Of a DNA stretch of 64,000 bases, positions 15,180 to 60,435 are shown in pieces. Position 1 is the stretch's first letter. Every line of letters begins with the position of its first letter. Source of the stretch: Parcubacteria group bacterium (GTDB taxonomy: Bacteria > Patescibacteriota > Minisyncoccia > Phycocordibacterales > Phycocordibacteraceae); assembly GCA_028286615.1 (NCBI GenBank), contig JAQBRG010000005.1, positions 913 to 64,912 on the forward strand, in the 5' to 3' direction. The translations under genes were made by a program, and so were the position numbers. The notes beneath the pieces are model-generated. The model did no database searches, was not told the DNA's origin, and saw nothing but the letters and a program-made list of their open reading frames with translations.

Positions 15180-15216
15180 ATTCATGAAATTCCCTTCACA
15201 TCCGCGCCCCTTACAC

Positions 15217-15648: not shown

Positions 15649-15652
15649 GCTT

Positions 15653-16600
15653 ATGGAACCGCGCCACGACACCGTTCTTCTACAAGAATCTGTTGATGCG
15701 CTTGTTATTGCACCAGGCGACATTGTTGTTGATGCAACACTCGGAGGAGCAGGGCATTTCAAGCTCATTCTTTCAAAGCTAGGCGCAAAGAACACGCTTA
15801 TGGGTATAGACGCAGATACCCAGGCAATTGAACGAGCACAGAAGGTTGTTACAGAAGCAGGTAGCCCAGCCGATGTACGTCTTGTAGAAGGAAACTTCAA
15901 AGATCTTGGAGCAATCCTCGATGCACAGAACATTAAGGAGATAGACAAAATCCTATTTGATCTTGGATGGAGCGGATTCCAGCTTGCTCTTGGACGCGGA
16001 TTCTCTTTCCGAGTGGATGAGCCTCTTTCCATGACCTATGGAGACCCAGAGGCTTCAACTAACGCAAAAGATCTCGTTAACCATCTTTCAGAAGAATCTC
16101 TCGCAGACCTCATCTTCACTCTTGGCGAGGAACGCTTTGCTCGAGGTATTGCTCGCAGCATCGTAGAGGCTAGAGAAGAGAAGGAAATTGAAACAACCTT
16201 CGAACTTGTTGCCGCTATTGAAGCGGGTACTCCTTCCTGGTACCACCATCGCCGTCTTCATCCAGCAACGAAGACCTTCCAGGCGCTCCGTATTGCCGTT
16301 AATGACGAGCTCGGAGCCCTTCGTGAGGGTCTAGCTGTCGCACTTGCTCGCCTTGCTCCTGGGGGACGTATTGCTGTTATCAGTTTCCATAGCATCGAGG
16401 ACCGCATCGTGAAGAGCACCTTGCGCGATGCAGCTCACGAGTGCGGCACGCTCGTTACCCGAAAGCCAATTGTGCCGTCTTCCGCTGAGACTGCGCAGAA
16501 TCCGCGCGCTCGGAGCGCGAAGCTGCGGGTGTACGAGCGTTCGATGTCCTGTGCAGTGCTTGCGGCCTCTTCTAACAACCTAATGTCTACCTATGCCTGA
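15653..16600 (+). CDS. rsmH: 16S rRNA (cytosine1402-N4)-methyltransferase RsmH
   Basis: HDTVLL.E....L......VVDATLGGAGH SAM-binding signature; dcw position. Confidence 0.9.
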   Translation: MEPRHDTVLLQESVDALVIAPGDIVVDATLGGAGHFKLILSKLGAKNTLMGIDADTQAIERAQKVVTEAGSPADVRLVEGNFKDLGAILDAQNIKEIDKILFDLGWSGFQLALGRGFSFRVDEPLSMTYGDPEASTNAKDLVNHLSEESLADLIFTLGEERFARGIARSIVEAREEKEIETTFELVAAIEAGTPSWYHHRRLHPATKTFQALRIAVNDELGALREGLAVALARLAPGGRIAVISFHSIEDRIVKSTLRDAAHECGTLVTRKPIVPSSAETAQNPRARSAKLRVYERSMSCAVLAASSNNLMSTYA

Positions 16601-16871
16601 TCGAACTATTTCAATCCTTGGTATTTCCTGCGGCGCACTCTTGAGTGTGTACGTCGCCCTGGTTATCACCACCATCACGTTCGCGGCATGGCAGACAGAA
16701 CTACGCGCAAGCATTCGTAGCACTGAAGGCATGATCTCCTCTCTTGAGAGCGAGTACTACGAACACGTTGCGGCTATAACCGCTACGGCCCCTTCAGCGT
16801 TCGGTCTCGTACCTCCCGCGTCTGTGCGTTATGCAGCAAAAGCACCGGCAACTGCCGTGTCGCTCCGCTAA
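16593..16871 (+). CDS. ftsL: FtsL-like small bitopic division protein
   Basis: 92 aa, single TM then a short periplasmic segment; sits between rsmH and ftsI. Confidence 0.5.
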   Translation: MPDRTISILGISCGALLSVYVALVITTITFAAWQTELRASIRSTEGMISSLESEYYEHVAAITATAPSAFGLVPPASVRYAAKAPATAVSLR

Positions 16872-16877
16872 GTTCCT

Positions 16878-18605: not shown

Positions 18606-18608
18606 CTT

Positions 18609-19889
18609 ATGAAAACTATTTTGCGCAGTATTGCTGCATCTATTCTCGCTTCTCTCGCGAGGGGAGTACTGCACCGATACAAGCCGCAGATTGTTATGGT
18701 TACGGGAAGCGTGGGGAAGACCTCAACCAAAGACGCTCTTGCAGCCTGTCTCTCCACGCATTATTTCTTACGAGCAAGCGACAAGAGTTATAACAGCGAG
18801 TTCGGCGTACCCCTTACGATAATCGGAGTTAAGACTCCTTGGAACAATCCCATTGAATGGATCAAAGTGTTTTGGGAAGGATTCGTTCTCCAAATACTCC
18901 CAAGCCACTACCCAAACCTTTTAGTACTTGAAGTTGGTGCAGACAGACCCGGAGACCTCGCAAAGATTTTAAAGATAGCAACGCCAGATCTAGTTGTTGT
19001 TACAAGGCTCCCTGAAGTGCCTGTGCATGTTGAAGCATACGCAGGCCCACAAGCTGTGCGCGAAGAAGAGTTCCTCCCAGCGCTCGCGCTTCCTGCGGGA
19101 GCGCCGCTCATCCTTTCAGCAGACGACATATACGCACGCCAGATGGCTGCACGCCTACAAGCTAAGGTTATTACCTATGGCTATGCGGAAGACGCAGATG
19201 TGCGGCTTCTCGATAGCAGCTTCACTGACACTGGCCTCCCAGGTATGTGCGCCGATATAGATACAGGAGAAGGAAAGTGCAGACTCGAGGCGCGAGGTGT
19301 ACTTGGACGGCAGCAATTGTTTGCGCCTGCTGCAGCGTTCGCTGCTGCTCGCGAGCTAGGCCTTACCGCTAAAGAAGCTCTGAAAGGACTCTCTCGTTAC
19401 AGCCCTCCACCAGGCCGTGCCCGTATCCTTCCTGGCAAGCACCACTCGCTCATAATTGATGACACCTATAATGCTTCTCCTGCAGCTGTTGAAGAAGCAC
19501 TCGCAGCCCTTATGCTTATAGGAAACGCTAAGCGACGTATTGCAGTGCTTGGAGACATGCTTGAGCTCGGACGTTATTCAGTTGAAGAGCATGCACGTAT
19601 AGGAAAACTTGCCGCGAAGGAAGTTGATATGCTCATAACTGTAGGGTCTCGTGCCCGAAGCATGCGCACCGCAGCGATTGAAGCCGGTATGGCTGAAGGA
19701 CTCGCCCTGTCATATGACACGCCCAAAGAAGCAGCCGATTTCATACTAGAGACTCTCAAGGAAGGGGATGTGGTACTGCTTAAGGGCTCGCAATCTGTAC
19801 GTATGGAGCGAGCAGTTGAAATGCTTCTTCTAGACTCGGCTGACGTTAAGCAGCTGGTCCGCCAGGAGAAAGAGTGGCTAGGGAGATAA
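18609..19889 (+). CDS. murF: UDP-N-acetylmuramoyl-tripeptide--D-alanyl-D-alanine ligase
   Basis: Mur ligase P-loop VTGSVGKTSTKD and the MurF-type DDTYNASP motif. Confidence 0.8.
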   Translation: MKTILRSIAASILASLARGVLHRYKPQIVMVTGSVGKTSTKDALAACLSTHYFLRASDKSYNSEFGVPLTIIGVKTPWNNPIEWIKVFWEGFVLQILPSHYPNLLVLEVGADRPGDLAKILKIATPDLVVVTRLPEVPVHVEAYAGPQAVREEEFLPALALPAGAPLILSADDIYARQMAARLQAKVITYGYAEDADVRLLDSSFTDTGLPGMCADIDTGEGKCRLEARGVLGRQQLFAPAAAFAAARELGLTAKEALKGLSRYSPPPGRARILPGKHHSLIIDDTYNASPAAVEEALAALMLIGNAKRRIAVLGDMLELGRYSVEEHARIGKLAAKEVDMLITVGSRARSMRTAAIEAGMAEGLALSYDTPKEAADFILETLKEGDVVLLKGSQSVRMERAVEMLLLDSADVKQLVRQEKEWLGR

Positions 19890-41106: not shown

Positions 41107-41144
41107 CCGGTCTGAACAAACATGTTCAGACCGGCTAGTTTTTA
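41107..41144. terminator. strong bidirectional terminator at the 3' end of the RT gene
   Basis: ccggtctgaac aaacat gttcagaccgg 11-bp perfect stem with T/A runs on both sides. Confidence 0.6.
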
Positions 41145-42352
41145 GGTATTTCAATATCGTAATCGCGTGCAAGTTTTAATACCGCTTGGCGAAACGATAC
41201 TCTCTCAGCGAATTGTACAAAGTCGATTACGTCCCCGTGTCTGCCGCTTGAAAAGCAATGCCAGAAACTCTTCTCCGGAACCACGAAGAACGAAGGGGTC
41301 TTCTCTTTTGTGAACGGGCTGAGGCATACGTACTCTCTGCCTCTCTGCGTGAGAGAACAATAAGAAGCTATTACCGCTACGAGTGGCGCATACTTACGCA
41401 CGCCATCGACGAACTCAATGCTTAAACGATTAGATTCGCGAGCCCATCGTTTGGGCAGCAAGCCCTCATCTTGAAGCTTGAAAATCCGTAGGGCGCATTC
41501 GTGCAAAAGCACCTTGAAGTTAGGTGAGACTTTTGTTCGACTGCTGCGAGTTCTTCCAATCGATCGAACGTGACTAACCAAACCGAGAAACGAATGTGCT
41601 TCTTCCGGTGTGGTTATGGCTCCTGCGAGCAGTGTTGCCAACTTCTGGCTTTGTTCGACAGTTGGACCCATGTATCCTTTCGGAGTCAGAACCACACCCG
41701 TTATTGTGATTGAAGACTTGCATCTATCTTTCACGAATGATTTTCGACGGTTAATTGAAAAACCTGCAGCTGACACCACGTCCCGGATTCGTTTTCGCAA
41801 AATATGCGGAATGGGATCCATCGAAGAAATGGTCAGATCGTCGAGATACCGGGTGTATACCGTCCGCGGCATGTCGATAAGATTACGTATACGAGAATCA
41901 ATCTCATGCGCGCAGTACAGATCGAACAGGGCAGGGGAGCAGGGTGCACCAACTGCCAAGCCGCCATCCTTGGAAGCACAGTGTGTTTTCAAGAATTTTA
42001 GCGTAGAAGCAGGATGGGTAAGCCGAGTATCGAGTGCATGCAATGCGTGTACCAGTTTGGTAAGAGACACGTTTGCATACGCTTCTCTAACATCAAGCTG
42101 GTAGAAATATCGGTTCTCAATATGCCACGCTGCGTTGTCTTTTCCTGAGCGTCCACTTAAGGCACCGAACGAAGAAAACAGTACAAAGTTGATATCAGGT
42201 ATGTCCTGTAGATAACCAAGCAGTCTCGTGTGCACTCTGCGCATTGCAACATTTGGATGCGCGATAAGTCGCTTCTTGCCCTTCGGGTATTGAATACTCC
42301 AGTCAAAGAGCGGAACACCAGAAGAGGTGTCCGCGAGCTCGGAGAGCTGCAT
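41135..42352 (-). CDS. reverse transcriptase (retron-type, NAxxH motif) fused to a C-terminal DnaG-primase-type zf-CHC2 zinc finger
   Basis: RT motifs: FYQLDVREAY (A), GAPCSPALFDLY (B'), YTRYLDDLTI (C, YxDD), NAAWH (retron NAxxH), ITITG. C-terminus CLSPFTKEKTPSFFVVPEKSFWHCFSSGRHGDVIDFV matches the zf-CHC2 of DnaG. Strong AGGAGG RBS 8 nt upstream. Confidence 0.8.
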   Translation of the reverse strand: MQLSELADTSSGVPLFDWSIQYPKGKKRLIAHPNVAMRRVHTRLLGYLQDIPDINFVLFSSFGALSGRSGKDNAAWHIENRYFYQLDVREAYANVSLTKLVHALHALDTRLTHPASTLKFLKTHCASKDGGLAVGAPCSPALFDLYCAHEIDSRIRNLIDMPRTVYTRYLDDLTISSMDPIPHILRKRIRDVVSAAGFSINRRKSFVKDRCKSSITITGVVLTPKGYMGPTVEQSQKLATLLAGAITTPEEAHSFLGLVSHVRSIGRTRSSRTKVSPNFKVLLHECALRIFKLQDEGLLPKRWARESNRLSIEFVDGVRKYAPLVAVIASYCSLTQRGREYVCLSPFTKEKTPSFFVVPEKSFWHCFSSGRHGDVIDFVQFAERVSFRQAVLKLARDYDIEIPKN

Positions 42353-46690: not shown

Positions 46691-47380
46691 CTAGGATTGC
46701 TCTGTGTAGTACTCAATCTTTATATCGTCTATCCACTCAGTGCCCGGAATAATGCTTAGGACTTTGCCAAAAATACGGGAATCTTCCTGTTTAACCACAA
46801 TTGGATAATAGGTGCCGTAGCTATTTTCAGGATTAAGATACACAACCTCATCTACCCGCTCGAATCGCTTGATAACTGCCATATTCCCAAGAATGGCAAC
46901 GACTCTGTCTCCGTTATCAACCTGGTTCGTTACCTCAACAATAACGTAGTCTCCGCTATGAATACCCGCGTCCTGCATACTGTCCCCCACTGCTTTAACT
47001 GCCACAATATTTGTTTGGCTAGCACGAGGACCAATGAGGCTGCGCTCTACAACGATGTACTCGCCGTATTGACTGTCGGCATAGACTTCCATGGCATCGC
47101 AACCCGCTGACGCAATAACAGGTACTTGTATAAGGTCTGAGCACATCTGAGATTCAACCCCATCAATTAGTGAAATGCTGCGATGCTGGAAGCGATCTCT
47201 CTTAATAAGGCCTTTCTTCTCAAGTCCCTCAATACGCTGGGTAACGCTCCTAAGAGAGCGGAGCTTTAGCTGAGTTGCAAGTTCTGTAATCGTTGGAGAC
47301 TTCCCGTTTTTCTCAATAGAGTTCTGAATGAGAACGAGCGTCTCTTTCTGTGCGGGCGTGAGTCCTACGAGCTTGGTCAT
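46691..47380 (-). CDS. lexA: SOS repressor LexA
   Basis: N-terminal wHTH; S24 peptidase motifs AVKAVGDSM (Ser) and ...VAILGNMAVIKRF (Lys). Confidence 0.85.
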   Translation of the reverse strand: MTKLVGLTPAQKETLVLIQNSIEKNGKSPTITELATQLKLRSLRSVTQRIEGLEKKGLIKRDRFQHRSISLIDGVESQMCSDLIQVPVIASAGCDAMEVYADSQYGEYIVVERSLIGPRASQTNIVAVKAVGDSMQDAGIHSGDYVIVEVTNQVDNGDRVVAILGNMAVIKRFERVDEVVYLNPENSYGTYYPIVVKQEDSRIFGKVLSIIPGTEWIDDIKIEYYTEQS

Positions 47381-47482: not shown

Positions 47483-48916
47483 ATGCGCGTTCCTTGTCTT
47501 AGTGGTGCGAACTATGCCGTTGTCGATGTGGAGACAACGGGCACTAGTGCTACCTATGGACAGATAATCGAGATAGGAATTATACGTATCGAAGATGGAG
47601 AGGTTGTTGATACGTATCAGACATTCATCAAACCTACGAGTACGCTTAATCCTTTCATAACTTCTCTAACAGGAATACGAGATGCAGATCTGGAAAACGC
47701 CCCTTCCTTTGAACAAGTATCAGGACGCATACAGGAACTCCTTGAAGACGCTGTATTCGTAGCTCATAACGCACGCTTTGATTACTCCTTTGTTAAGAGC
47801 GAGTTCAGGCGTCTCGGTATCTCTTGGAATGCCAAGACTCTTTGTACTGTGCGCATGTCTCGGAAACTCTTCCCGGCTGAGAAGGCGCATAACTTAGATG
47901 CCCTTATAGAACTCCATGGTCTCCGAATGGAAAACAGGCATCGTGCCTTTGACGACGCGTACGCGCTCGTTGAGTTTATTACTATTGCTGCAGAAAAGCG
48001 TTCTGAAGAATTAGTGCGTGAGACTATTGCAACCATTCTCGGGAATCATACGCTCCCAGCGGCTATAGAACCAAGCGTTGTTAAGAATCTTCCGCATGCG
48101 CCTGGCGTGTACATCTTTTATGGAAACGAAGACAACGTCCTCTATGTTGGAAAAAGTGTAGACATAAAGACACGTGTGATGTCACACTTCTCCGCAGACC
48201 ATCTCTCAGGCAAGGAGCGGGCCATGTGCGAAGAAACTGCACACATAGAGTATGAAGTAACGAGTGGCGAGCTCTCTGCCCTGCTGCGCGAGTCCATCCT
48301 CATCAAAGAACTCTTGCCGCTGTATAACCGCAAGCTACGCAAAGCAAAAAAGCTTGCTGTTATAGCAAGCGAGACAAATGAGCTCGGATACAAGCATGCG
48401 GCCGTGGCGTATAGGGACGAATTAGATCAAGAAGACTTCGGGAATACCGAGGGCGTATTTAGAACTGCTTCTCAAGGCAAAGCGTCTCTTAAAGAAGCTG
48501 TTAAGGAATATCAGCTGTGCCCAAAGCTTCTAGGTATAGAGAAAGGTTCAGGTGCCTGTTTCCAGTACCAACTTAGAAAGTGTTTAGGGGCCTGCCTCGG
48601 AAAGGAAAATGTAGACATGTACAATGCTCGCTTCGCACAAGCGTTCGAGAAGCGTCGCATACGTTCTTGGCCCTTTAAAGGTCCAGTTATGCTGCCAGAA
48701 GATCCATCTGCTGAAGAAGGCACTGTGTATGTTATTGACCAGTGGCGAATACTGAAGACTCTTTCCTACACCACAGACGGGTATGACGAACGAGAGGTTG
48801 ATTCAGATTTTGATTACGATTCCTACAAGATTCTCAGCAAGCACCTTCTTCGCAGAGATGTGCGCGCAAAGCTAACGCCCTACACATCCCAGCTTTCAAG
48901 GGAGTATGCTTATTGA
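47483..48916 (+). CDS. DnaQ-like 3'-5' exonuclease fused to a GIY-YIG nuclease domain (SOS-context repair nuclease)
   Basis: N-terminal AVVDVETTG/FVAHNARFD/HRAFDDA DEDDh motifs. Central PGVYIFYGNEDNVLYVGKSVDIKTRVMSHF GIY-YIG motif. Divergent from lexA. Confidence 0.75.
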   Translation: MRVPCLSGANYAVVDVETTGTSATYGQIIEIGIIRIEDGEVVDTYQTFIKPTSTLNPFITSLTGIRDADLENAPSFEQVSGRIQELLEDAVFVAHNARFDYSFVKSEFRRLGISWNAKTLCTVRMSRKLFPAEKAHNLDALIELHGLRMENRHRAFDDAYALVEFITIAAEKRSEELVRETIATILGNHTLPAAIEPSVVKNLPHAPGVYIFYGNEDNVLYVGKSVDIKTRVMSHFSADHLSGKERAMCEETAHIEYEVTSGELSALLRESILIKELLPLYNRKLRKAKKLAVIASETNELGYKHAAVAYRDELDQEDFGNTEGVFRTASQGKASLKEAVKEYQLCPKLLGIEKGSGACFQYQLRKCLGACLGKENVDMYNARFAQAFEKRRIRSWPFKGPVMLPEDPSAEEGTVYVIDQWRILKTLSYTTDGYDEREVDSDFDYDSYKILSKHLLRRDVRAKLTPYTSQLSREYAY

Positions 48917-50915: not shown

Positions 50916-51566
50916 ATGTCTACTAAGAAGCGCACTGCAGTGAAAAAGGATCAGGTTAAGGTAGCCATGGCACACCTCAAGAAGGTTGATCCTCTTATGC
51001 ACGCTGCTGCCCTCCCCTACCGCAAGGAACTAGGAAAGAAGATAACTCACAGGCGCGGATATAAGCGCGACGACCTCTTTGCTGCACTTGCCGGGTCTGT
51101 GGTTGGTCAACAGCTTTCCGTTAAAGCAGCCGATACTATCTGGGAACGGCTTCGGGTAGCCTCAGGAGGCGCCGTTACCCCCGAAGCAATTAAGAAGCTT
51201 CGCGTGCCAACCATGCGCAAGGCAGGACTCTCTGCAGCTAAGATTAAAACGCTTAAAGAACTTTCTAATGCAGTGCTTATCGGGAACTTGGACCTCCCTG
51301 CCCTTCGCAAGGTGCCTGAAGAAGAAGCCATAACAAGACTCTCAAGTATTTGGGGTATAGGACGTTGGACTGCAGAAATGTTTCTCATGTTCGCGCTTGA
51401 TAGAGAGGACGTGTTCTCTTCTGGAGATTTGGCACTCAGGCGAGCTGTTGAAACTATTTATAATTTGCCGAAAGACACTCCTTTAAAAACAATAGAAGCT
51501 ATTGCTGCAAGCTGGACTCCGCACAGGACTTTTGCATCTAGAGTGTTGTGGATGACCAGGGACTAA
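50916..51566 (+). CDS. HhH-GPD family DNA glycosylase (AlkA-like 3-methyladenine glycosylase II)
   Basis: Helix-hairpin-helix IWGIGRWTAEMFLMFAL followed by a catalytic Asp (...SSGDLALRRA). Confidence 0.7.
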   Translation: MSTKKRTAVKKDQVKVAMAHLKKVDPLMHAAALPYRKELGKKITHRRGYKRDDLFAALAGSVVGQQLSVKAADTIWERLRVASGGAVTPEAIKKLRVPTMRKAGLSAAKIKTLKELSNAVLIGNLDLPALRKVPEEEAITRLSSIWGIGRWTAEMFLMFALDREDVFSSGDLALRRAVETIYNLPKDTPLKTIEAIAASWTPHRTFASRVLWMTRD

Positions 51567-52633: not shown

Positions 52634-52685
52634 GTCCCTATTCTACCCTGTTGTGCCGCTCACTCTGGATGAGGTTGAAAGCCTC

Positions 52686-53123
52686 TTATCCTTTAATAAA
52701 TCTAGGCTCATCTGAGAATAAAGTTCCTGCGCGCAGATCTTTTGCGATTCTATCTGGAAGAATCCTGACATCTGTTGTGGGAGACACCCATACTATTTCG
52801 TTTATTTCATGAATATGCGTTCTTTCTAATCCTTCTAGGTTTACAAAATCCTGACCATTTAGGACCTCAAAAAAGAATTCTACTGGTTGAGTTAAGTTTT
52901 TGTCCTCAAAAGTATTTACGTATAGCAGTCTTCCAATTTGCGGCTCAACTCCAAGTTCTTCTACAATTTCTCTACTAAGACATTCTTTAGGGTCCTCTCC
53001 CCATTCAAGGTGACCTCCTGGAAGCGCGACAAAAGTTATGTCGTGAGAATGCCTAACTACAAGTAATTTTCCCTCGTGGAGGATTATTGCGCGGCAACGA
53101 ATTACATATTTCTTACCTTGCAT
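52686..53123 (-). CDS. NUDIX hydrolase (third in the window); lies immediately after repeat Ra in cassette-like fashion
   Basis: Nudix box GGHLEWGEDPKECLSREIVEELGV; only 28 nt separate its ATG from repeat Ra. Confidence 0.75.
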   Translation of the reverse strand: MQGKKYVIRCRAIILHEGKLLVVRHSHDITFVALPGGHLEWGEDPKECLSREIVEELGVEPQIGRLLYVNTFEDKNLTQPVEFFFEVLNGQDFVNLEGLERTHIHEINEIVWVSPTTDVRILPDRIAKDLRAGTLFSDEPRFIKG

Positions 53124-53151
53124 ATCTGAATGGTATCAGATTAGGTATGGT

Positions 53152-53207
53152 TAGCAGCCTAAGACGATGTTGGAACCTCTTTGCAACATGTGATAGGTTC
53201 TGTCTAG
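53152..53207 (+). repeat. repeat Ra (slightly degenerate core + extended inverted-repeat arm + RBS of G1)
   Basis: tagcagcctaagacgatgttggaacct ctttgcaacatgtgat aggttctgtctag then aaggagg and ATG at 53222. Confidence 0.7.
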
Positions 53208-53221
53208 AAGGAGGATCAGCC

Positions 53222-53686
53222 ATGTGGATTGAGGAATATACCTATGGACCGCCTATATCTGAAGAGGAGCGCCAGCGGCACGTCGCTGCCATTGAGGAGG
53301 CTCTCCAAAAATATAGGGAGTATCTGGAAGCTAGGGGCGAAGTAATCTGCCAGCTCTGGTCAATACATGACATAGACAGGCGTCACAGCCATCAGTTCTG
53401 CTCTCTGCACATCGATGATTTGAAGCGCAAGGATTTCCATAAGCGCTATAACAGCTCGTTGCCAGAAACAGCACCGGACACCTATTATGCTTTTGCTCGG
53501 GATGAGCACTCCCGACTCATCCCAACCTATCACTGCCGTGTGGACGCAACGATTTACAGGCGCATCAAGGATAGCGATATTGGGCTCTGGTGCGTAACCA
53601 TTCCTATGGATACCGTCGAGGCGGTCGCACTCATTCCGCCAAACGATTTTATCTCACTGACCGAAGGCTTGATGCCTGCCCGCTAA
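53222..53686 (+). CDS. cassette gene G1: hypothetical protein
   Basis: 154 aa (MWIEEYTYG...), RBS aaggagg supplied by the extended repeat. Confidence 0.45.
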   Translation: MWIEEYTYGPPISEEERQRHVAAIEEALQKYREYLEARGEVICQLWSIHDIDRRHSHQFCSLHIDDLKRKDFHKRYNSSLPETAPDTYYAFARDEHSRLIPTYHCRVDATIYRRIKDSDIGLWCVTIPMDTVEAVALIPPNDFISLTEGLMPAR

Positions 53687-53752
53687 TATTGAATTAAACT
53701 AAGCCGTACGGTTCGCCCTGCGGTTTTCTTTTGCAAGTTAAAATTAGTGAGC

Positions 53753-53779
53753 TAGCTGCCTGGGACGATCTTGGAACTT
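53753..53779 (+). repeat. repeat Rb (core, degenerate)
   Basis: tagctgcctgggacgatcttggaactt; stop codon of 53778..54419 overlaps its 3' end. Confidence 0.6.
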
Positions 53780-54419
53780 ATTTAATCAGATGTTGCGTAT
53801 ATCCTTCAGCAACTAGCTGCACGTAGGCCTGCCACACATCGTCTGGTATCTCTTGTTCAATTTGAAAACCCTTAGCCGGATATTCCTTTATACGCTGGAG
53901 ATCTCCAACCATCATATTAATTAAGTATTCTTTTGTTCGCTCCTCGTTAGGATATTCTTTGAAGGATATGGGTGGGGACGTAACCACGAAGTCCATATCA
54001 GGCCATTGTTTAGCGAAAGTAGCATAAGTTCGTCGCTCCATGTAGGGCTTCTGTATAAGAATGAGCTTGCCAACTTCTACGCCCTTTTCTTTAAGTAGCT
54101 GTTTTGTGAATTGAACGTTGTCTCCAGTATTCGTTGCTTCCTTCTCAAGCAAAATCTTATCTTCAGGAACTCCCAGACTCATTGCAACTTCTGTAAATTT
54201 CTCTGCTTCAGTCATGCCCCACAATTCCATAGTCTTTCCCTTCCCATCTCGGCCCGAAAAGATGATAAGCGGGGCCCAGCCCTCGAGATAGAGTTCCGCT
54301 GCATACGCAGGAACGCGCAAATCGCTGCTCCCAAGCACAAAGATTGCATCAGCCTTCTCAAGAGGCTGGTGCAGCTGCATGTAGTCCCAGATAAGTTCTG
54401 CGGCTGAATCAGTATTCAT
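53778..54419 (-). CDS. cassette gene G2: DUF218 (YdcF/SanA-like) domain protein
   Basis: ADAIFVLGSSDLRVPAYAAELYLEGWAPLIIFSG typical of DUF218; compact cassette (18-nt leader after Rc, stop abutting Rb). Confidence 0.6.
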   Translation of the reverse strand: MNTDSAAELIWDYMQLHQPLEKADAIFVLGSSDLRVPAYAAELYLEGWAPLIIFSGRDGKGKTMELWGMTEAEKFTEVAMSLGVPEDKILLEKEATNTGDNVQFTKQLLKEKGVEVGKLILIQKPYMERRTYATFAKQWPDMDFVVTSPPISFKEYPNEERTKEYLINMMVGDLQRIKEYPAKGFQIEQEIPDDVWQAYVQLVAEGYTQHLIK

Positions 54420-54437
54420 GTGAACACATTAGCATTG

Positions 54438-54460
54438 CTGGCAGTCTGGGACGATGTTGG
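54438..54460 (+). repeat. repeat Rc (core, 3'-truncated)
   Basis: ctggcagtctgggacgatgttgg. Confidence 0.7.
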
Positions 54461-54602
54461 CGCCAAACTACTTCAAAAACTCGAATCCTGTGTACTGAGC
54501 TAAATTTGACAATCTAAGTCAAACATGTTATATACAAATATCAGTCCATGCGACTGAGTGGCGGGATTGGCCTGCCACGTTCCTTCATGCAAGGAGAAGA
54601 CG

Positions 54603-55208
54603 ATGAGTGAATTTGACCGTCTGGGCGTCGTTCGATCGACGGCTATTGCCGCAGCCAATGCGGTGGTCAACCACATGAACATCGGACAGTTCATTTCGGA
54701 GTTCGACAAGATCAACGACTATACGCTGCGAGCATGTAAGTTCCAGGGTAATGCTGAGGTGCAGATTGAGGGCCGTACGAATCATGACCTTTGGGTCTAC
54801 CCAACCTGCACGGTGATTTTCAAGAACAATCGGCAGGCAGGGTTCCCGATCGATCGAGTGTACGTTTCCGTGACGTACGCAGGTCGCGACGGAGTGCATT
54901 CGAATCGCCAGTACTACGTCTGCACGTTCTACGAGGACGTGGCGGTCGCGAGACTGGCCCGTTCACCGCACGACGAGACCGAAGTCGTGGTCTTCAGCAG
55001 TAATAGTCAAGGGAAGTTCTACTTCTCCAAAGACCATTGCCAGCCCTACGCCAACGGATTCGTCCCGACGAGCCACAAGCTGCCGTGCAAGGTGAAGGGT
55101 CGCCTTGGCCTGTCCGAAGGGCTGGTCTGTACGCGTGAGGAACTGATCTTCGTGTTCTACGACGACAAGAAGGAAGTCCCTAACCCTGACGTCCGCTACT
55201 TGTCCTAA
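54603..55208 (+). CDS. cassette gene G3: hypothetical protein (high-GC)
   Basis: 201 aa, own promoter TTGACA-17-TATATA at ~54488..54520 and RBS aaggag; GC clearly higher than neighbouring cassettes. Confidence 0.45.
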   Translation: MSEFDRLGVVRSTAIAAANAVVNHMNIGQFISEFDKINDYTLRACKFQGNAEVQIEGRTNHDLWVYPTCTVIFKNNRQAGFPIDRVYVSVTYAGRDGVHSNRQYYVCTFYEDVAVARLARSPHDETEVVVFSSNSQGKFYFSKDHCQPYANGFVPTSHKLPCKVKGRLGLSEGLVCTREELIFVFYDDKKEVPNPDVRYLS

Positions 55209-55300
55209 CAATTGTTCACAGCCCCCGGACTTAGATGACCGGGGGCTCAATATTTTTATACAAACTGATTCTAATGTCCTTCACGCGCTGCTAAACATTG

Positions 55301-55326
55301 CTGGCAGTCTGGGACGTTATTCGAAC
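55301..55326 (+). repeat. repeat Rd (core, 3' half diverged)
   Basis: ctggcagtctgggacgttattcgaac. Confidence 0.6.
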
Positions 55327-55339
55327 AAACTTAAAGGCC

Positions 55340-55882
55340 TCACCGCATGGGTGAGGCCTCAATAAGGAGCAGATTCGCAATAAGGTCGAGGAAGTTCGCT
55401 TCGAGACGATATTGCGGGATGTGATATCGAGCATAGCGGCTTTTTGGCCAGCCCATCGCGACATTAAGCGGCTTTATGCGTTCTTCCACGGATAAGGCAT
55501 GCGCACGGATATCCGTTGCCTCTTCTCTAAGAACGGCAGCGATCTTCGGACAGTCTGCGGTTTCCAGCAGTTGCACAAAGGCCAAGGCTCCCTGGATTTG
55601 ATCTTCAATGGCCTTACTCTGGGTTTCTTGAAATTCAAGCTCTTCGCTGGCTACGTCCAGGGCCATAGATGCGCCTCCGGCCAGGGCACTTAATGATGAG
55701 TCCGGCGGCAGTTCATCTTGTAAATCTTTAAGTATATCCTCGACATGTTCCGGACTCTTAAGATGATGCACGTACTTATCCTGAAGATTTGCGTCCTTCG
55801 CGAGCTGTCTGGCTCGATTTAGATAAGTCGTGATGAGAAAAGCCAAAACGTCGGCTCGGGTTTGAAACACGGTAGGCAACAT
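55340..55882 (-). CDS. cassette gene G4: hypothetical protein (possible DinB/YfiT-like helical bundle)
   Basis: 180 aa; own promoter TTGACT-17-TAGTAT and GGAGAAGG RBS; 3' end overlaps the hairpin ggcctcacc/ggtgaggcc. Confidence 0.4.
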   Translation of the reverse strand: MLPTVFQTRADVLAFLITTYLNRARQLAKDANLQDKYVHHLKSPEHVEDILKDLQDELPPDSSLSALAGGASMALDVASEELEFQETQSKAIEDQIQGALAFVQLLETADCPKIAAVLREEATDIRAHALSVEERIKPLNVAMGWPKSRYARYHIPQYRLEANFLDLIANLLLIEASPMR

Positions 55883-55942
55883 AGCCTTCTCCTGTAATGA
55901 ACGTTCAGGAGAATACTATAACTTATTTATAAAAAGTCAATG

Positions 55943-55970
55943 CTGGCAGTCTGGGACGATGTTGGAACCT
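55943..55970 (+). repeat. repeat Re (core)
   Basis: ctggcagtctgggacgatgttggaacct; stop of 55969..56502 overlaps its 3' end; -35 TTGACT of the 55340..55882 promoter abuts its 5' end. Confidence 0.8.
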
Positions 55971-56502
55971 ATTTACCCAGAGCTTTCTTCAAAGCATCAA
56001 CTAATTCAGGGAGCTCTGGTTGACCGAAATGGCCCCGGTCAGCAAACTCGTAGTACTCGGTCTTTAGTTCTTTATGTATTTCGTGGGCTTGAGGAAGTGG
56101 AATGTACGGGTCATCAATTGAAGCAAACTGCAGTATGAATTGTTGGTTATTGCGTATAGCAGTCCAGTCCCAAGGATCGTCAAAGTAATGGCTCGCCTTC
56201 TCTGTCTCATATCCTAAATCCGTAATGCTGGGAGCAACTAATACAGAGCCTAGAACTTTATTTGTTTCTGCATAACGCATTGCAGCTACCGCACCAGAAG
56301 AGTGTCCGATCAGAACAGTATTTTCATCCGCTTCCAATTCTTTTAGAAAAGGGAGCCAGTATTCCTTACGCGCCAATTCAGCGTCTGGGAATTGTGTATT
56401 TATGACTGCTATACCCAGATTCACAAGCTCTCGCTCAATGTATGGTGACCAGTTGTCTTCTGGAGATCCTCCACCATTCCCAGGAAGTATTATCGCTTTC
56501 AT
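55969..56502 (-). CDS. cassette gene G5: alpha/beta-fold serine hydrolase (YdeN/RBBP9-like)
   Basis: MKAIILPGNGGG...LIGHSSGAVAAMRYAE nucleophile elbow; compact promoterless cassette (21-nt leader after Rf, stop overlapping Re). Confidence 0.65.
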   Translation of the reverse strand: MKAIILPGNGGGSPEDNWSPYIERELVNLGIAVINTQFPDAELARKEYWLPFLKELEADENTVLIGHSSGAVAAMRYAETNKVLGSVLVAPSITDLGYETEKASHYFDDPWDWTAIRNNQQFILQFASIDDPYIPLPQAHEIHKELKTEYYEFADRGHFGQPELPELVDALKKALGK

Positions 56503-56523
56503 TATTGAAGTGTAACAAACTTC

Positions 56524-56580
56524 CTGGCAGTCTGGGACGATGTTGGAACCTTTATGCAATATGTGATAGGTTCTGTCTAG
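56524..56580 (+). repeat. repeat Rf (core + extended inverted-repeat arm)
   Basis: ctggcagtctgggacgatgttggaacct ttatgcaatatgtgat aggttctgtctag, then taaggag RBS and ATG at 56599. Confidence 0.8.
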
Positions 56581-56598
56581 GTAATAAGGAGATGCCAA

Positions 56599-57027
56599 AT
56601 GCAACGTGAGGTAGTTCTTGCACAGAAGACGCGTGACATTCAAGAAAGCCTGGAGTCATGGGCTCTCGAATCTGGCCTTTTAAGTCCAGGCGAGCAGCTA
56701 GTGTTTTCTCTTCGAATTGAGGGTAGCCCCATTGTCGTGCGCAATGTCGCCGATATGGAACCGCTACTGGAAATGAAAGTCATCGACTTCTTTAATGCGG
56801 AGCGTCTCCGTATGATCGATGCATCGTGCGGCAGAAAGGGCATCGCTACACGAGTTTTTAATGTCATCCGGGAGCAAGGCTATATGGATGACAACTGTAC
56901 CTTGCGAAATTTTCTCCAAAAGGAGACGGTTACAAGCCTACTTCGATATCCCAATTCTGGCAGACTGTGTACAAACGTATTGCGTGAGGTATTCAAGAAT
57001 GTCGGGCTCGTTCTAAGAGAAAAATAA
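56599..57027 (+). CDS. cassette gene G6: hypothetical protein
   Basis: 142 aa, preceded by extended repeat Rf and its RBS. Confidence 0.4.
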   Translation: MQREVVLAQKTRDIQESLESWALESGLLSPGEQLVFSLRIEGSPIVVRNVADMEPLLEMKVIDFFNAERLRMIDASCGRKGIATRVFNVIREQGYMDDNCTLRNFLQKETVTSLLRYPNSGRLCTNVLREVFKNVGLVLREK

Positions 57028-57072
57028 TCAACCGCGTAATGGGATTTCCGTTCATGCGGTTTTCCTATTTTG

Positions 57073-57129
57073 CTGGCAGTCTGGGACGATGTTGGAACCT
57101 ATTTGCAATACATGCTAGGTTCTGTCCAG
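57073..57129 (+). repeat. repeat Rg (core + extended inverted-repeat arm)
   Basis: ctggcagtctgggacgatgttggaacct atttgcaatacatgct aggttctgtccag, followed by the RBS and ATG at 57156. Confidence 0.8.
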
Positions 57130-57155
57130 ACCCTTTGAATCGAAAGGAATGTGAG

Positions 57156-57665
57156 ATGGCGGTAAACGTACCGGAAATAATTGCACTGAGCAGTGAGCGA
57201 CTTGGGATACCTGGCATCCTCGCACTTTTCCAGGTTGCGCATGAACGTGGAATTGGGTTGGGCGGGGCTTCAAAGGAAAGAGAGTCGGAAGCTCCAGAAC
57301 CAGTCTATGCGCTCGACGTGTTCCAGCTCTGCGACGACTTCGGGAATTTCCTCTGCCGGGCTGTCGAAATGGCAGTGAACGACTTTCTCGAGAAGCCAGG
57401 GTACGAGCACAGCGCCGAACTCGTCGTGTATGCATACGACGAGAGGCGCCGTGGCCGTTCCAACTCCATACCTGCGCTTCTCGGTGATGGCGATTGGGGT
57501 GATACTCTCGATCATGCCGTTGGCGAAGCAATCACCAACTTCATCAAAAACGGTGGCTGCCGCGACATTATCACGCTCGCTGTTCGGGTGTATCACGGGA
57601 GAAAACGGAGCAAGCTCGGCAGATTCGAAGTCGATCTCACTCGCTATCCCGCTACAGAGCATTAA
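57156..57665 (+). CDS. cassette gene G7: hypothetical protein (high-GC)
   Basis: 170 aa (MAVNVPEIIAL...), preceded by extended repeat Rg. Confidence 0.4.
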   Translation: MAVNVPEIIALSSERLGIPGILALFQVAHERGIGLGGASKERESEAPEPVYALDVFQLCDDFGNFLCRAVEMAVNDFLEKPGYEHSAELVVYAYDERRRGRSNSIPALLGDGDWGDTLDHAVGEAITNFIKNGGCRDIITLAVRVYHGRKRSKLGRFEVDLTRYPATEH

Positions 57666-57719
57666 GCGATTGAATCTCTTAAAGAGGCCTGGAAACGGGT
57701 CTCTTATCTTTAATAAGTT

Positions 57720-57747
57720 CTGGCAGTCTGGGACGATGTTGGAACCT
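57720..57747 (+). repeat. repeat Rh (core)
   Basis: ctggcagtctgggacgatgttggaacct; TAA of the minus-strand MazG-like gene lies immediately 3' of it. Confidence 0.8.
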
Positions 57748-58062
57748 TTATACCTCAAACCTCCTATCTAATTCATCCATAGTTATCAGAAAGGACTGCT
57801 CCAGATCAATATCGTACTTCTTTGCGATAACGAGGAGGGACCACAAGCAATCTGAAAGCTCATGTCTTAACCTTTCATCAACGTCATCCAAATCCCTAAC
57901 CCCCTCCTTAGTCATTACAAGCTTCATAAGATCGCCTACGTCACCCACAAACCCCTGGGCAATTTCACCCGGTGTCCACTCACGACCGTATTTGCTCTTT
58001 TCAAGTATTGAATACTTTTCTCGCACGTCCATTGCTCGCTCACTGAGCTGCTTTAAGTCCAT
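57748..58062 (-). CDS. cassette gene G8: MazG-like nucleotide pyrophosphohydrolase
   Basis: EIAQGFVGDVGDL...ELSDCLWSLLVIAKKYDIDLEQ MazG all-alpha NTP-PPase signature. 336-nt cassette exactly bounded by Ri and Rh. Confidence 0.65.
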   Translation of the reverse strand: MDLKQLSERAMDVREKYSILEKSKYGREWTPGEIAQGFVGDVGDLMKLVMTKEGVRDLDDVDERLRHELSDCLWSLLVIAKKYDIDLEQSFLITMDELDRRFEV

Positions 58063-58083
58063 GAGTTGAGTGTACCAGAATCG

Positions 58084-58111
58084 CTGGCAGTCCGGGACGA
58101 TGTTGGAACCT
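58084..58111 (+). repeat. repeat Ri (core, one mismatch)
   Basis: ctggcagtccgggacgatgttggaacct; 21 nt from the ATG of the minus-strand MazG-like gene. Confidence 0.8.
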
Positions 58112-58212
58112 TCTTAAATAAGGCTGATTTGACTTATGCATAATAATGTGCTATTCTAGACGTAGACTTGAATCAGAGCTCCTCGCAATCAATTTAAGAG
58201 AAGGATCGCTAA

Positions 58213-58635
58213 ATGCGCCTCAATCTGCTTGCAGTCCTAGCGACTACGGCCATTTTGGCACTGCCTGGCGGTGCTTTAGCTCAGGCGGTCGCGCCACCAG
58301 TAATTCCGGTCGTCGTCATGCCGAGCGATGCGCATATCACGCACACGCCCGGCTACTACCGGTTCGATACCACCCATTTCATGGTGGTTCGGTGGAACGG
58401 CGGCCTGCTCTCGAAAGTCGAGGACGAATATGTCAGCGGCATCTTCGAGAAGTGTGACTCGCAGTTCTTGGCTCCCGGGCCAAACCCAGGCCACGACAGG
58501 CCGATCGACTTCAGTGCGTTGCTCTCCGGCTTCCGCACCTGCGTGCGTACCTCGCTCGATGGGGCACGTCGGCAGAACATTCTTCCCGGCGACTATGACT
58601 ACGTCGTCATGGAAGCTCCCCTCTTTCGGCGCTAA
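58213..58635 (+). CDS. cassette gene G9: small secreted protein (high-GC)
   Basis: Signal peptide MRLNLLAVLATTAILALPGGALA; own promoter TTGACT-17-TATTCT at ~58117..58145. Confidence 0.45.
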   Translation: MRLNLLAVLATTAILALPGGALAQAVAPPVIPVVVMPSDAHITHTPGYYRFDTTHFMVVRWNGGLLSKVEDEYVSGIFEKCDSQFLAPGPNPGHDRPIDFSALLSGFRTCVRTSLDGARRQNILPGDYDYVVMEAPLFRR

Positions 58636-58712
58636 TCGCGCCTGCTTCGACCCAAGGCACGTGAATATCGATTTAATTCGATCTCTTCACGTGCTTTTTC
58701 TTATAGATATTG

Positions 58713-58740
58713 CTGGCAGTCTGGGACGATGTTGGAACTT
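58713..58740 (+). repeat. repeat Rj (core, last copy)
   Basis: ctggcagtctgggacgatgttggaactt, followed by a hairpin at 58752..58775. Confidence 0.75.
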
Positions 58741-58775
58741 TTATATAAAAAGGGCCGCACTCGAAAGCGCGGCCC
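58741..58775 (-). terminator. terminator-like hairpin between the M23 peptidase 3' region and the repeat array
   Basis: gggccgcac tcgaaa gcgcggccc stem; T-run on the minus strand (ttttatataa). Confidence 0.4.
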
Positions 58776-59088
58776 GGACATGATCTGAAGCGATTTAACA
58801 ACGTGGTATCCCAAGGATGGCTCAAGCGAATCTAGCGACCCGCGGTCAACGCCTCCCACGTATCCTGTATTTCAGTAAAAGAAGCTTCAGTTCCACCATG
58901 AAAGGATTTCAACCTTTCTCTTCAGCACAGCCTGTGTGCAATAGCATTCTTCTGATTATCCATTGAAGGAGTTGGGCCGGTAGTCTGCGTGACCCTCAGA
59001 ATTAAGCGGTAAGCACCTGGTGTTGTCCGGACGCAGGATAACACACGTTCCATCGTAGCCAAGTATTACTGGGAGACTAGGTATCGAA

Positions 59089-60435
59089 CTACAAATACGA
59101 CATCGGATTCAAGTACGCATCTATAGGAGCAACTGGCATCGAAGCACTGGCACACGGGGTTGTTGCGCCACGATACTGCCCGAGAGTTGTAATCTGGACA
59201 CCGGCTGCAGCGTATACGCCGAAGTGCACGTGAGGTCCTGTTGCGTATCCGGTCATACCGGAGTATCCAAGAACTTGCCCTGTGCTAACCGCCTGTCCTG
59301 TGGTTACACCAATAGAAGACATGTGCGCGTAGAGCGTTGCTAGTCCGTTCGCGTGCTTAACCATCACCCACTTTCCGAACGAGTAACATCCAGGAACCGC
59401 ATCAGTGTTTCCTGTAGCAAGTACCGTACCTGAAAGCGCAGCAAGAAGCGGTGTGCCGACAGGCATACCAATATCAATAGCGTTATGTCCTGAACCGTTG
59501 TATATCTGCGCGTTAGCCGTAGCGAATGCCGTGTTGCCGAAATATTGCGTGATGCAGTACGGGTTTCCAAGCGCAGATGCTTTTCCAACACAAGACTGAG
59601 CAAACGTTTCAGAATAGGGCCATTTCAATATGCCTTGTCCTACGGCCGTAACATTTCCTTGTCCCACAGACTTCAGGCTGCTTTGAAGAGCAGAAAGCTC
59701 AGACTCAAAGGATTTCTGCTGCGCTTTCTTCTGAGCGATAATCGACTGATAGTTCGACTCCTGGCTCTTGGTCTGAGCAAGAAGACGATCCTTCTCAGTC
59801 TTGGCTACATCAAGTGCTTTCTTTTGAGACGCGAGCTGATCTCTAAGTTTTGAGAGTCCGTCTTTGGTTGCGCTTACATCTTCGTGCTGGTGCGTAAGAT
59901 CTACCTTTGCGGTTGAAAGACTTGCAGCTTTCGCGCGGAGTGCCTGGCCAACAGCAGCCGTTGCGTCAACAGAAGACCACGCGTCTGCAAGACTATCTGC
60001 AGAGAAGAGCTGTTCAACTAGTGACGTGTCGCTTGCATCTGCCATTTCCCGTAGAGAGCTCGCAAGAGTCTTCTTGTCTAGATCGATAAGGCTTTGCTTG
60101 TCTGCAATATCAAGAGCAAGCTCGTTCAACTTCAAGTTGCTCGAGGTTATCTTGTTCTGCGTTACGTTGATCTGCGTACTGGTCTGCTGGCGCGAGACAT
60201 CAATAGATTTAATCGCGCTTTGGAGCGTCTGCTTCTGGCCGCCAATAACATTCAGTTGTTGCTGGTACTGCGCAATCTCTGCCTCAAGATTTTTAATCTT
60301 CTGGTTCTGTACGTCTATCTGCGCCTGTATATCTGTCTTCTCGTCTGCAAACAAAGACTTAGGTGCAATGCTCTCTAGGGTTCCGAAGAACGCGAGGAGT
60401 ATTAAAAGGAATGTAAGTGAGCGTAAGAACTGCAT
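59089..60435 (-). CDS. M23-family peptidase with N-terminal coiled-coil (EnvC/murein hydrolase activator-like)
   Basis: Signal peptide, long Gln/Lys/Ala coiled-coil, C-terminal LytM domain HNAIDIG...YAHMSS...GPHVHFGVY. Confidence 0.8.
   Translation of the reverse strand: MQFLRSLTFLLILLAFFGTLESIAPKSLFADEKTDIQAQIDVQNQKIKNLEAEIAQYQQQLNVIGGQKQTLQSAIKSIDVSRQQTSTQINVTQNKITSSNLKLNELALDIADKQSLIDLDKKTLASSLREMADASDTSLVEQLFSADSLADAWSSVDATAAVGQALRAKAASLSTAKVDLTHQHEDVSATKDGLSKLRDQLASQKKALDVAKTEKDRLLAQTKSQESNYQSIIAQKKAQQKSFESELSALQSSLKSVGQGNVTAVGQGILKWPYSETFAQSCVGKASALGNPYCITQYFGNTAFATANAQIYNGSGHNAIDIGMPVGTPLLAALSGTVLATGNTDAVPGCYSFGKWVMVKHANGLATLYAHMSSIGVTTGQAVSTGQVLGYSGMTGYATGPHVHFGVYAAAGVQITTLGQYRGATTPCASASMPVAPIDAYLNPMSYL

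Follow-up and report, generated by a model that had tools for sequence, protein, structure and literature searches.

An array of single-gene cassettes in a Parcubacteria genome, probably built from integration scars of a large serine recombinase element family

The 64,000-nt stretch of contig JAQBRG010000005.1 analysed here (positions 913 to 64,912; assembly GCA_028286615.1, Parcubacteria group bacterium), hereafter the window, contains an array in which ten direct repeats (site A) alternate with small, unrelated genes and which ends at a second, tRNA-derived site (B). We consider it likely that A marks the recombination junction of elements that encode a large serine recombinase (LSR) and form a family in the Candidate Phyla Radiation (CPR)/Patescibacteria, and that the array is a series of integration scars at a vacant attB. 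The system is integron-like in function and lacks every structural hallmark of an integron, which departs from the initial annotation of the repeats as attC sites of an integron or of a cluster of attC sites lacking an integron integrase (CALIN).

Repeat A and its distribution

Site A (TTGCTGGCnGTCTGGGACGATGTTGGAACC) is present in ten same-orientation copies on the plus strand at 53150-58739. A pattern search, a repeat finder and a Hamming scan agree on these copies, so that the ten direct 28-nt repeats of single orientation first noted at 53.15-58.74 kb are confirmed by three scans. From left to right the copies differ from GCTGGnnGTCTGGGACGATGTTGGAAC at 5, 3, 2, 3, 0, 1, 0, 1, 1 and 0 positions. 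They start 364-863 nt apart and enclose spacers of 336-835 nt, each of which codes for a gene, as opposed to the non-coding spacers of 25-70 nt in CRISPR; the initial exclusion of a CRISPR array therefore holds. Zero further copies were found elsewhere in the 64 kb, and zero in shuffled sequence. An independent Logan assembly of the right flank (contig L001) ends exactly at the last copy, A10. The ten copies of the proposed 28-nt core are thus real, but a logo of 267 copies indicates that the conserved block is in fact about 35 nt long (TT GCTGG C n G TCTGGGACGATGTTGGAAC C TTTnT), with no conservation leftward of it.

Each A-to-A interval of the window contains one substantial open reading frame (ORF), five on the plus and four on the minus strand, in agreement with the one gene per segment on either strand that had been described. 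The cassettes range in GC content from 0.44 to 0.54. Pfam matches were obtained for the genes G2 (DUF218) and G5 (Ser_hydrolase) and, below threshold, for G8 (MazG), the remaining cassette genes being without match; left of A1, Pfam also recognised the Nudix and the glyoxalase gene. Direct reading of the sequence bears out that stop codons of minus-strand genes sit at the repeat end: those of G2, G5 and G8 touch or overlap its AAC(C/T)T terminus.

The 19-mer of A was scanned in a collection of species-representative genomes and additionally in metagenomes, with loci of 8-21 kb, a length that limits the view around the arrays. The genomes yielded more than 117 matching stretches, mostly in metagenome-assembled genomes of Patescibacteria and often with several copies, and the metagenomes another 120 loci. 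Together with the window this amounts to 584 copies of A at 220 loci, almost all of them from CPR. The orientation of A is uniform within each locus, with one distant opposite-strand copy (L117) as sole exception. In the genome set the median spacing of A is 578 nt, and the median ORF of 140 aa occupies 77% of the interval. Relative to A, 95 genes (61%) of 155 cassettes lie on the minus and 60 (39%) on the plus strand. The cargo of 148 cassettes includes Nudix, HAD, SDR, histidine phosphatase, hydrolases, cupin, deformylase, GH25, methyltransferases and GNAT; most of these cassettes have no Pfam match, and no recombinase family is among the 25 commonest.

Phages carrying A were considered and rejected: all 34 IMG/VR matches represent a Rhodobacterales prophage C5-methyltransferase gene that contains the 19-mer, and some 16 Rhodobacterales genome matches are the same coding sequence, unrelated to arrays. 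In these sequences (L008, L019, L026 and others; IMG/VR L119-L152) the 19-mer encodes VWDDVGTF, the same peptide as in the tail of the LSR described below, which we treat as a coincidence.

Site B and the tRNA target

Read in reverse complement, the B of the window corresponds to the 3' end of a tRNA-Gln (T-arm and 3' strand of the acceptor), the tRNA body being absent. The final bases of B form the TAG stop codon of an M23 peptidase gene, and we infer that B is a vacant attB. Across loci, B follows the consensus TTGCTGG(G/C)AGACTAGG(G/T)ATCGAACC and lies 170-750 nt right of the last A. Of 54 metagenome loci with a B, 52 have it beyond the last A, and in the genome set most loci with B show just one, in terminal position. 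ARAGORN called a complete tRNA-Gln (UUG or CUG) at B in at least 13 genome loci. At other loci B is the 26-nt fragment only, placed at the stop codon of a convergent housekeeping gene; the genes so abutted are M23 (window, L021, L023, L115), ychF, mltG-like and murD. Such fragments without tRNA body (window, L021, L023, L115, L087, L063, L014, L071, L094, L282) are conserved between species.

Site A has in common with the tRNA end only TTGCTGG and a loose resemblance of CnGTCTGGG to GAGACTAGG; the other 16 nt are element-derived. Beside real tRNA-Gln genes, B reads GGGAGA and the adjacent A copies GGCnGT, which places the exchange to the left of that position, within TTGCTGG. The acceptor stem needs this GGGAGA. 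Two other readings of the sites were discarded. The repeat is not a plain 3' fragment of tRNA or tmRNA, as ARAGORN and Rfam gave nothing in the array and no T-arm is visible by eye; only B is tRNA-derived. Likewise, had the exchange occurred at the right-hand border of the repeat (GAAC|C), A would lie beside a tRNA body, an arrangement that was never seen.

Polarity and turnover of the arrays

The arrays are polar. Over 36 arrays, the mean number of mismatches in A is 0.94 at the B-proximal and 2.67 at the distal end, the distal value being higher in 24 arrays and lower in 6. In pairs of genomes whose right flanks are 94%, 86%, 83% and 77% identical, similarity ends exactly at tt|GCTGG of B, and left of B the repeats alone match. 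The orthologous locus between the HhH-GPD and M23 genes has 1, 2 or 10 repeats depending on the species. These observations agree with the earlier proposals that the active end lies toward the M23 peptidase, where the newest A copies and B are found, and that the repeats bound mobile cassettes, given that cassettes are exchanged and related genomes lose homology at B.

Exchange is evident from individual cassettes. L013 and L108 have one cassette in common (88% identity) with unrelated neighbours on both sides, and homologues of G1, G2, G5, G6 and the Nudix gene of the window stand beside A in other arrays, with A on both sides in L260, L192 and L102. Positions 5-7 of A form array-specific variants, which are identical in 0.51 of comparisons within arrays against an expectation of 0.20. 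This evidence supports the view that the array is made up of separate single-gene cassettes which are exchanged horizontally and have a recombination site at their borders.

A family of large serine recombinase elements at A and B

Neither Pfam on 40 ORFs nor phmmer, for which the XerD and Hin query sequences were approximate, found a recombinase in the window, in line with the absence of an integrase stated in the initial annotation. No recombinase recurred in about 100 genome loci of 8 kb, and a recurrent neighbour as the enzyme had to be given up, as clustering of the ORFs of these loci returned housekeeping flanks only (dnaX, dus, HI0933-like, M23, ychF and mltG-like genes).

The lead came from long inter-site intervals. 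L195 contains a 6.4-kb insert between a degenerate A and B that encodes an XRE regulator, a rolling-circle Rep and an LSR of 486 aa, whose last codons (ATG CTG GGA GAC TAG) are the left part of B. In five metagenome loci (L195, L199, L191, L218, L226) an LSR lies 3-5 kb right of an A on the same strand. The protein combines the Pfam domains Resolvase, Recombinase and Zn_ribbon_recom and belongs to a family of more than 2,600 members which, where a source is named, are labelled Parcubacteria or Paceibacterota. The LSR-Rep elements are 3-7 kb long, with A at the left and B at the right.

An independent test is provided by loci that were retrieved via the LSR protein alone and not via the repeat. 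L273 has six copies of A followed by the element and an LSR whose 3' end overlaps tRNA-Gln(CUG), and L277 has fourteen copies followed by Rep, LSR and a B fragment. In L283 and L285 the LSR overlaps tRNA-Gln(UUG), the site in L285 being the dnaX-dus-serS hot spot that bears arrays in other genomes, and in L282 the LSR reads through a B fragment beside murD. More distant relatives overlap tRNA-Lys (L274) and tRNA-Ser (L276, L286). In each of their left junctions (GTCCGCCCTATGGG+ACGATGTTGGAAC, GCGGAGAGTGTGGG+ATGAAGTTGGAAC and GCGGGGAGTTTGGG+ACGATGTCCGAAC, respectively), the same arm is joined to the 3' end of the tRNA that is targeted.

The circular form of such an element is likewise observed. 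Contigs of 5,751 nt, 13 in number and from several samples (L278-L281), have 55-nt terminal overlaps and rotated starts and are therefore circular copies. In this form the LSR frame reads through GCTGGTGGCAGTCTGGGACGATGTTGGAACC and ends ...LVELVAVWDDVGTGLTISL, whereas integrated copies end ...LEIMLGD; the swap of the C-terminal tail on integration may act as a built-in state switch. The attP of the circular L279 lies inside the LSR frame and contains the inverted repeat CCAACTTGTC-N18-GACGATGTTGG, centred on TGG/GC of the block common to A and B. Two features known from LSR systems, an attP of about 50 bp whose dyad symmetry is imperfect and hybrid attL/attR junctions, are thus present, and autonomous copies outside the window carry a domain-bearing recombinase beside the site, which the window does not. 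Of the two attB half-sites only the tRNA side of B is conserved; left of TTGCTGG the DNA is merely A/T-rich.

Several further observations were made on these elements. The cargo of the 5,751-nt circle includes a Shedu (SduA_C) defence gene. L284 (437-11512) is an LSR locus with three A-type arms 2-4 kb apart, whose intervals hold TIR, Zeta toxin and DUF2726 genes (defence-like), showing that larger multi-gene cassettes exist too. L286 (10001-19084) has two LSR genes: the second element (11968-19004) sits at tRNA-Ser(GCU) with a matching left junction, and the first LSR lies just upstream of it without a recognisable site, so that L286 may represent tandem or decayed elements. A variant site, gtgcaccaTCTGGGACGATGTTGGAACctatctaacctcctc, occurs in L002, L005, L039, L076 and L084, where an ORF reads through it (..WDDVGTYLTSSIDPKEKASLII..) and a PLD-like gene of 175 aa follows; the gene that it cuts short in L002 is presumably DUF2958-like. 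The variant probably belongs to a sister element with another target.

Proposed mechanism and its weak points

In the mechanism that we favour, the LSR elements would have as their integration target either the tRNA-Gln 3' end or B, which is a 26-nt copy of it. Site A would then be composed of the exchange region TTGCTGG (tRNA positions 70-76) and a P' half-site of attP of about 27 nt, and B of the same exchange region and the tRNA T-arm, the conserved half of attB. The probable position of the exchange is deduced from the symmetry centre of attP and from the differences between B and A next to real tRNAs. Each integration at B would put new DNA between the previous insert and B and leave an A at its left, so that growth would take place next to B, which in the window means on the M23 side, and old copies would decay at the opposite end. 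The window lacks the recombinase element, and what would be left there are ten A scars, their cassettes and a vacant B.

For the loading of cassettes we prefer a shuttle route. A 3-7 kb LSR-Rep element would integrate at B by attP x attB, its excision might use any upstream A as an alternative attL, so that adjacent cassettes would travel with it to another genome, and these cassettes would stay in the new host once the element was precisely excised again. This route would need canonical reactions only, plus sequence tolerance in the distal half of attB. LSR elements at B fragments (L277, L282) fit such a tolerance; together with the tandem elements of L286 they suggest it without proving it. 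The array-specific variants of A (positions 5-7) are compatible with a single element lineage having visited an array repeatedly.

A number of points weigh against this interpretation. Neither phmmer nor Pfam on the scanned ORFs found an LSR in the 64-kb window, and an LSR stands beside an array in only about 5 of 120 metagenome loci and in none of about 100 genome loci; loci of 8 kb may be too short to reveal it. The left half-sites of A and of the vacant B are not conserved, which means that the enzyme must accept any distal attB half-site, and to our knowledge well-studied serine integrases would not tolerate this. One tRNA-Lys locus and the examined tRNA-Ser loci have a single left junction and no array of A. 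Because every locus from the A scan was retrieved through an exact match to A, the positions used as seed appear more conserved than they are. Finally, the mechanism accounts neither for the origin of the cassettes and the first capture of a gene, nor for the origin and conservation of the B fragments outside tRNA genes, nor for the conserved promoter module described below.

Alternative explanations

The main alternative to the shuttle route is direct recombination of single cassettes by the same LSR in trans, each cassette being a substrate that is excised by A x A and inserted as a circle at B or A. The neat single-gene units, each with a full P' arm, would be expected in this case, as would the common cassette of L013 and L108 with different neighbours on both sides, and Ccr recombinases of the staphylococcal cassette chromosome (SCC) are reported to recombine many site pairs. 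However, because the cassettes are without a P half-site, A x A and A x vacant-B fall outside the canonical repertoire of serine integrases, no cassette circles were observed, and the shuttle route explains the common cassette equally well. We regard direct cassette recombination as possible, though rather unlikely.

A tyrosine recombinase, either the host Xer or a tRNA-type integrase encoded elsewhere, might use TTGCTGG as a 7-bp overlap, with the LSR-Rep element as a passenger. Seven identical nucleotides placed at the 3' end of a tRNA are indeed the classical layout of tyrosine integrases, and an XerD-like gene flanks the arrays of L022, L225 and L249. This Xer gene is, however, the left neighbour in a single syntenic hot spot, and A and B lack inverted core-binding repeats around the overlap. 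In addition, attP falls within the LSR frame, which also provides the 3' end of the tRNA, and the arm is found with members of this LSR family at tRNA-Lys and tRNA-Ser as well, a pattern that ties the site to the LSR. A Xer/dif-like site was also rejected, as the 28 nt contain no 11-6-11 dyad and the three XerD-flanked arrays represent one syntenic locus. A tyrosine recombinase is accordingly improbable.

Still less probable is an array without any dedicated recombinase, in which the 35-nt blocks would serve as homology anchors for RecA-mediated cassette exchange after natural transformation. CPR bacteria are thought to be competent, a prepilin-like gene is present in the left flank, and identical flanking repeats would permit cassette swaps. 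Yet RecA would leave unexplained why A is conserved by more than 95% across distant lineages, as well as the single terminal B, the polarity of decay and the existence of LSR elements that share the ends of the arrays and possess an attP.

The reading as a chromosomal integron or CALIN, with the repeats as attC sites folding as single strands and an IntI tyrosine recombinase elsewhere, is now very hard to maintain. It drew on an array whose cassettes are small, varied and for the most part unannotated (Nudix, glyoxalase, hydrolases) and on the motif GTTGGAA. This motif does lie one position off GTTRRRY, but there is no paired R'' to go with it. No complementary arm occurs within 150 nt of 255 copies of A, the best score equalling that of the shuffled control. 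Folds of the bottom DNA strand of the ten window copies, the check originally put forward, revealed no attC-like R''-L''/L'-R' hairpin and are unremarkable (z -1.9 to +0.5) save for A10, whose flanks contain two terminator-like hairpins; no fold pairs the repeat consistently. Rfam found no match in the array, either at the gathering threshold or at E<=1. The site is short, sequence-conserved and one-sided, and the array ends in a tRNA-derived site instead of attI/intI. No IntI is present among the scanned ORFs of the window and none recurs at about 220 arrays; the associated enzyme is a serine recombinase, with no adjacent tyrosine recombinase save the housekeeping Xer at one orthologous locus. 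Instead of promoterless, co-oriented cassettes under an integron cassette promoter (Pc), the genes occupy both strands and appear to have promoters of their own.

That the repeats are an element resembling repetitive extragenic palindromes (REP) or miniature inverted-repeat transposable elements (MITE), or a regulatory element (terminator, insulator, promoter), spread between genes is hardly credible either: a -35-like TTGGAA within the repeat is used by the extended promoter module and the repeats do stand in intergenic DNA, but they are confined to one array in 64 kb, are neither palindromic nor dispersed units bounded by terminal inverted repeats, keep nearly always one orientation whatever the strand of the gene, and form arrays that differ wholly between genomes with 94% identical flanks.

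Expression signals of the cassettes

The minus-strand genes G2, G5 and G8, previously taken to be promoterless, have TACACT or TAATGT exactly 6 nt before ATG, a candidate -10 box, and look leaderless rather than promoterless. Over 302 cassettes, genes on the minus strand relative to A show TAnnnT 4-9 nt before ATG in 64% and a Shine-Dalgarno-like (SD-like) motif in 16%, and genes on the plus strand an SD-like motif in 50% and TAnnnT in 13%. Judged by these motifs, there is a strong strand asymmetry, with minus genes mostly of a putative leaderless type and plus genes SD-led.

An extended form of A of about 57 nt is present in three window copies (53150, 56523, 57072) and in 55 of 575 copies overall. 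It comprises a -35 TTGGAA within the repeat, N18, an extended -10 TGnTAGGTT, CTGTCyAGA, SD and ATG. The module CTTTmTGCAAynTrTGnTAGGTTCTGTCyAGA precedes unrelated cassette genes in many genomes, and its conservation reaches beyond the -10 box. The extended form had been noted after three copies, which is correct, and had been credited with an inverted repeat; by its sequence it behaves as a conserved promoter module and not as a recombination hairpin. Scanned for sigma-70 promoters, the array showed no enrichment over shuffles (12 versus 7.8 +- 3.2), so that statements on promoters rest on the reading of conserved -10 boxes, from which we infer promoter function.

Features of the window

The features of the array and its flanks are compiled in Table 1. 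The Nudix gene left of A1 had been proposed as a terminal cassette. This is plausible: it is probably an older cassette, as its homologue in L102 has A on both sides and a weak, degenerate copy of A (A0) is discernible in the window. The whole 1.6 kb between the HhH-GPD gene and A1 (prepilin-like, glyoxalase and Nudix genes) is probably a decayed array. Cassette homologues of G2 were found in L192 and L243, and a homologue of G5 in L283, where it adjoins an LSR element.

Table 1. Sites, cassette genes and flanking genes of the array (positions in the window).
Feature	Position	Strand	Remarks
HhH-GPD glycosylase	50916..51566	+	conserved left flank; also L018, L021, L023, L100
A0, possible decayed copy	52651..52681	+	between glyoxalase and Nudix genes; weak, alignment score 11.5 versus control maximum 10.5
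Nudix gene	52686..53123	-	Pfam NUDIX; left neighbour of A1
A1	53150..53177	+	oldest recognisable copy, 5 mismatches; promoter-like module next, 53178-53207
G1	53222..53686	+	no Pfam match; cassette homologues L260 (80% aa), L090/L154, L021
A2	53751..53778	+	3 mismatches
G2	53778..54419	-	DUF218/YdcF; putative leaderless type, -10 TAATGT 54426-54431, 6 nt before ATG
A3	54437..54464	+	2 mismatches
G3	54603..55208	+	no Pfam match; own SD and terminator (predicted)
A4	55300..55327	+	3 mismatches
G4	55340..55882	-	no Pfam match; putative promoter TTGACT-16-TAGTAT (55940-55913), terminator 55360-55334
A5	55942..55969	+	consensus copy
G5	55969..56502	-	serine hydrolase; putative -10 TACACT 56509-56514, 6 nt before ATG
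A6	56523..56550	+	promoter-like module next, 56551-56580
G6	56599..57027	+	no Pfam match
A7	57072..57099	+	promoter-like module next, 57100-57129
G7	57156..57665	+	no Pfam match
A8	57719..57746	+	
G8	57748..58062	-	weak MazG-like match; putative -10 TACACT 58069-58074, 6 nt before ATG
A9	58083..58110	+	
G9	58213..58635	+	signal-peptide-like N-terminus; putative own promoter 58129-58157
A10	58712..58739	+	newest copy, closest to B
A10-to-B segment	58740..59065		no convincing gene; minus-strand terminator 58775-58752
B	59066..59091	+	ttACTGGGAGACTAGGTATCGAACta
M23 peptidase	59089..60435	-	conserved right flank; same gene-B layout in L021, L023, L115

Two loci of the window outside the array deserve mention. 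A protein of 405 aa (41135-42352, minus strand) has a reverse transcriptase domain (RVT_1, residues 24-208) and, at its C-terminus, a CHC2 zinc ribbon of the DnaG type (313-404); it is labelled 'primase' in GenBank and does not recur near other arrays. A LexA-like repressor gene (46691-47380, minus strand) adjoins a fusion of an RNase_T-type exonuclease and a GIY-YIG nuclease (47483-48916, plus strand).

Comparison with known systems

Our literature search, which most subscription journals lay outside of, found no description of site A, of the arrays or of the behaviour of this LSR family. With integrons the system has in common a reserved site at which unrelated single-gene cassettes are stacked, the newest next to the acquisition site, a cargo of small enzymes and unknowns, and arrays that occur without a nearby recombinase. 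It differs in that the candidate enzyme is an LSR and not IntI, the site is a short, unfolded duplex half-site instead of a structured attC, the acquisition site is tRNA-derived, and the genes lie on both strands with putative promoters of their own and without Pc-type expression.

The closest known systems are the SCC/ccr composite islands and also the tycheposons. The LSRs of SCC in staphylococci (ccrAB/ccrC) integrate circles at the 3' end of rlmH without disrupting this gene; conservation of attB is limited to the half on the gene side, and tandem arrays occur in which recombinase-less pseudo-elements lie between short direct repeats. An LSR, a target at the 3' end of a conserved gene, a conserved half-site on the gene side and recombinase-less tandem units would be shared with the system described here. 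SCC units are, however, few and kb to tens of kb long, whereas here single genes of about 0.6 kb form arrays of up to 14, the target is a tRNA end or fragment, the host belongs to the CPR and the LSR gene spans attP.

Tycheposons of Prochlorococcus combine integration and replication modules with cargo at tRNA genes, carry tyrosine recombinases in 910 of 937 elements and co-transfer flanking material; successive integrations push older material into the island, where partial tRNAs mark old events (bioRxiv 10.1101/2020.12.28.424599). The LSR-Rep elements resemble them as small elements of an integration module, a replication module and cargo that integrate successively at tRNAs. The repeats of tycheposons are plain partial tRNAs and their islands irregular, as opposed to the ordered single-gene cassettes with a conserved 27-nt arm seen here; A is not the tRNA 3' end itself, as the direct repeats of tycheposons and other tyrosine-recombinase islands are.

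Phage-type LSRs (phiC31, Bxb1, A118) follow the logic of attP x attB and attL x attR. The enzyme described here corresponds to them in the succession of Resolvase, Recombinase and Zn ribbon, in an attP of about 50 bp with an imperfect dyad next to int, and in its hybrid junctions. Unlike in these phages, the reading frame of the enzyme changes on integration, integration apparently takes place at occupied sites with an arbitrary distal half-site, and scars accumulate into arrays; tRNA 3' ends are, moreover, unusual targets of serine integrases.

Significance

CPR bacteria have tiny genomes with few recognised mobile elements, and their gain of genes is poorly understood. Site A marks hundreds of hypervariable cassette arrays at conserved chromosomal positions, and its arm of 19-27 nt is a simple handle for finding the accessory gene pool of CPR in metagenomes. 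The case also cautions against integron or CALIN calls made from repeat spacing alone.

As a broader view, which we put forward tentatively and with somewhat less than even confidence, the system could be a serine-recombinase counterpart of the integron in CPR. LSR-Rep shuttles would load single-gene cassettes onto a tRNA-Gln-type attB, including its copies at the ends of housekeeping genes, and would thereby constitute a major route of gene gain, and the swap of the LSR tail (...LVELVAVWDDVGT... in the circular, ...LEIMLGD in the integrated form) might be a switch of directionality or stability. If the LSR is confirmed, its family would comprise compact serine integrases with a short, defined attB (the T-arm of tRNA-Gln) and tolerance in the distal half-site, which would be of interest for genome engineering, and the arrays would be another answer to the task that integrons perform, reached by an independent mechanism.

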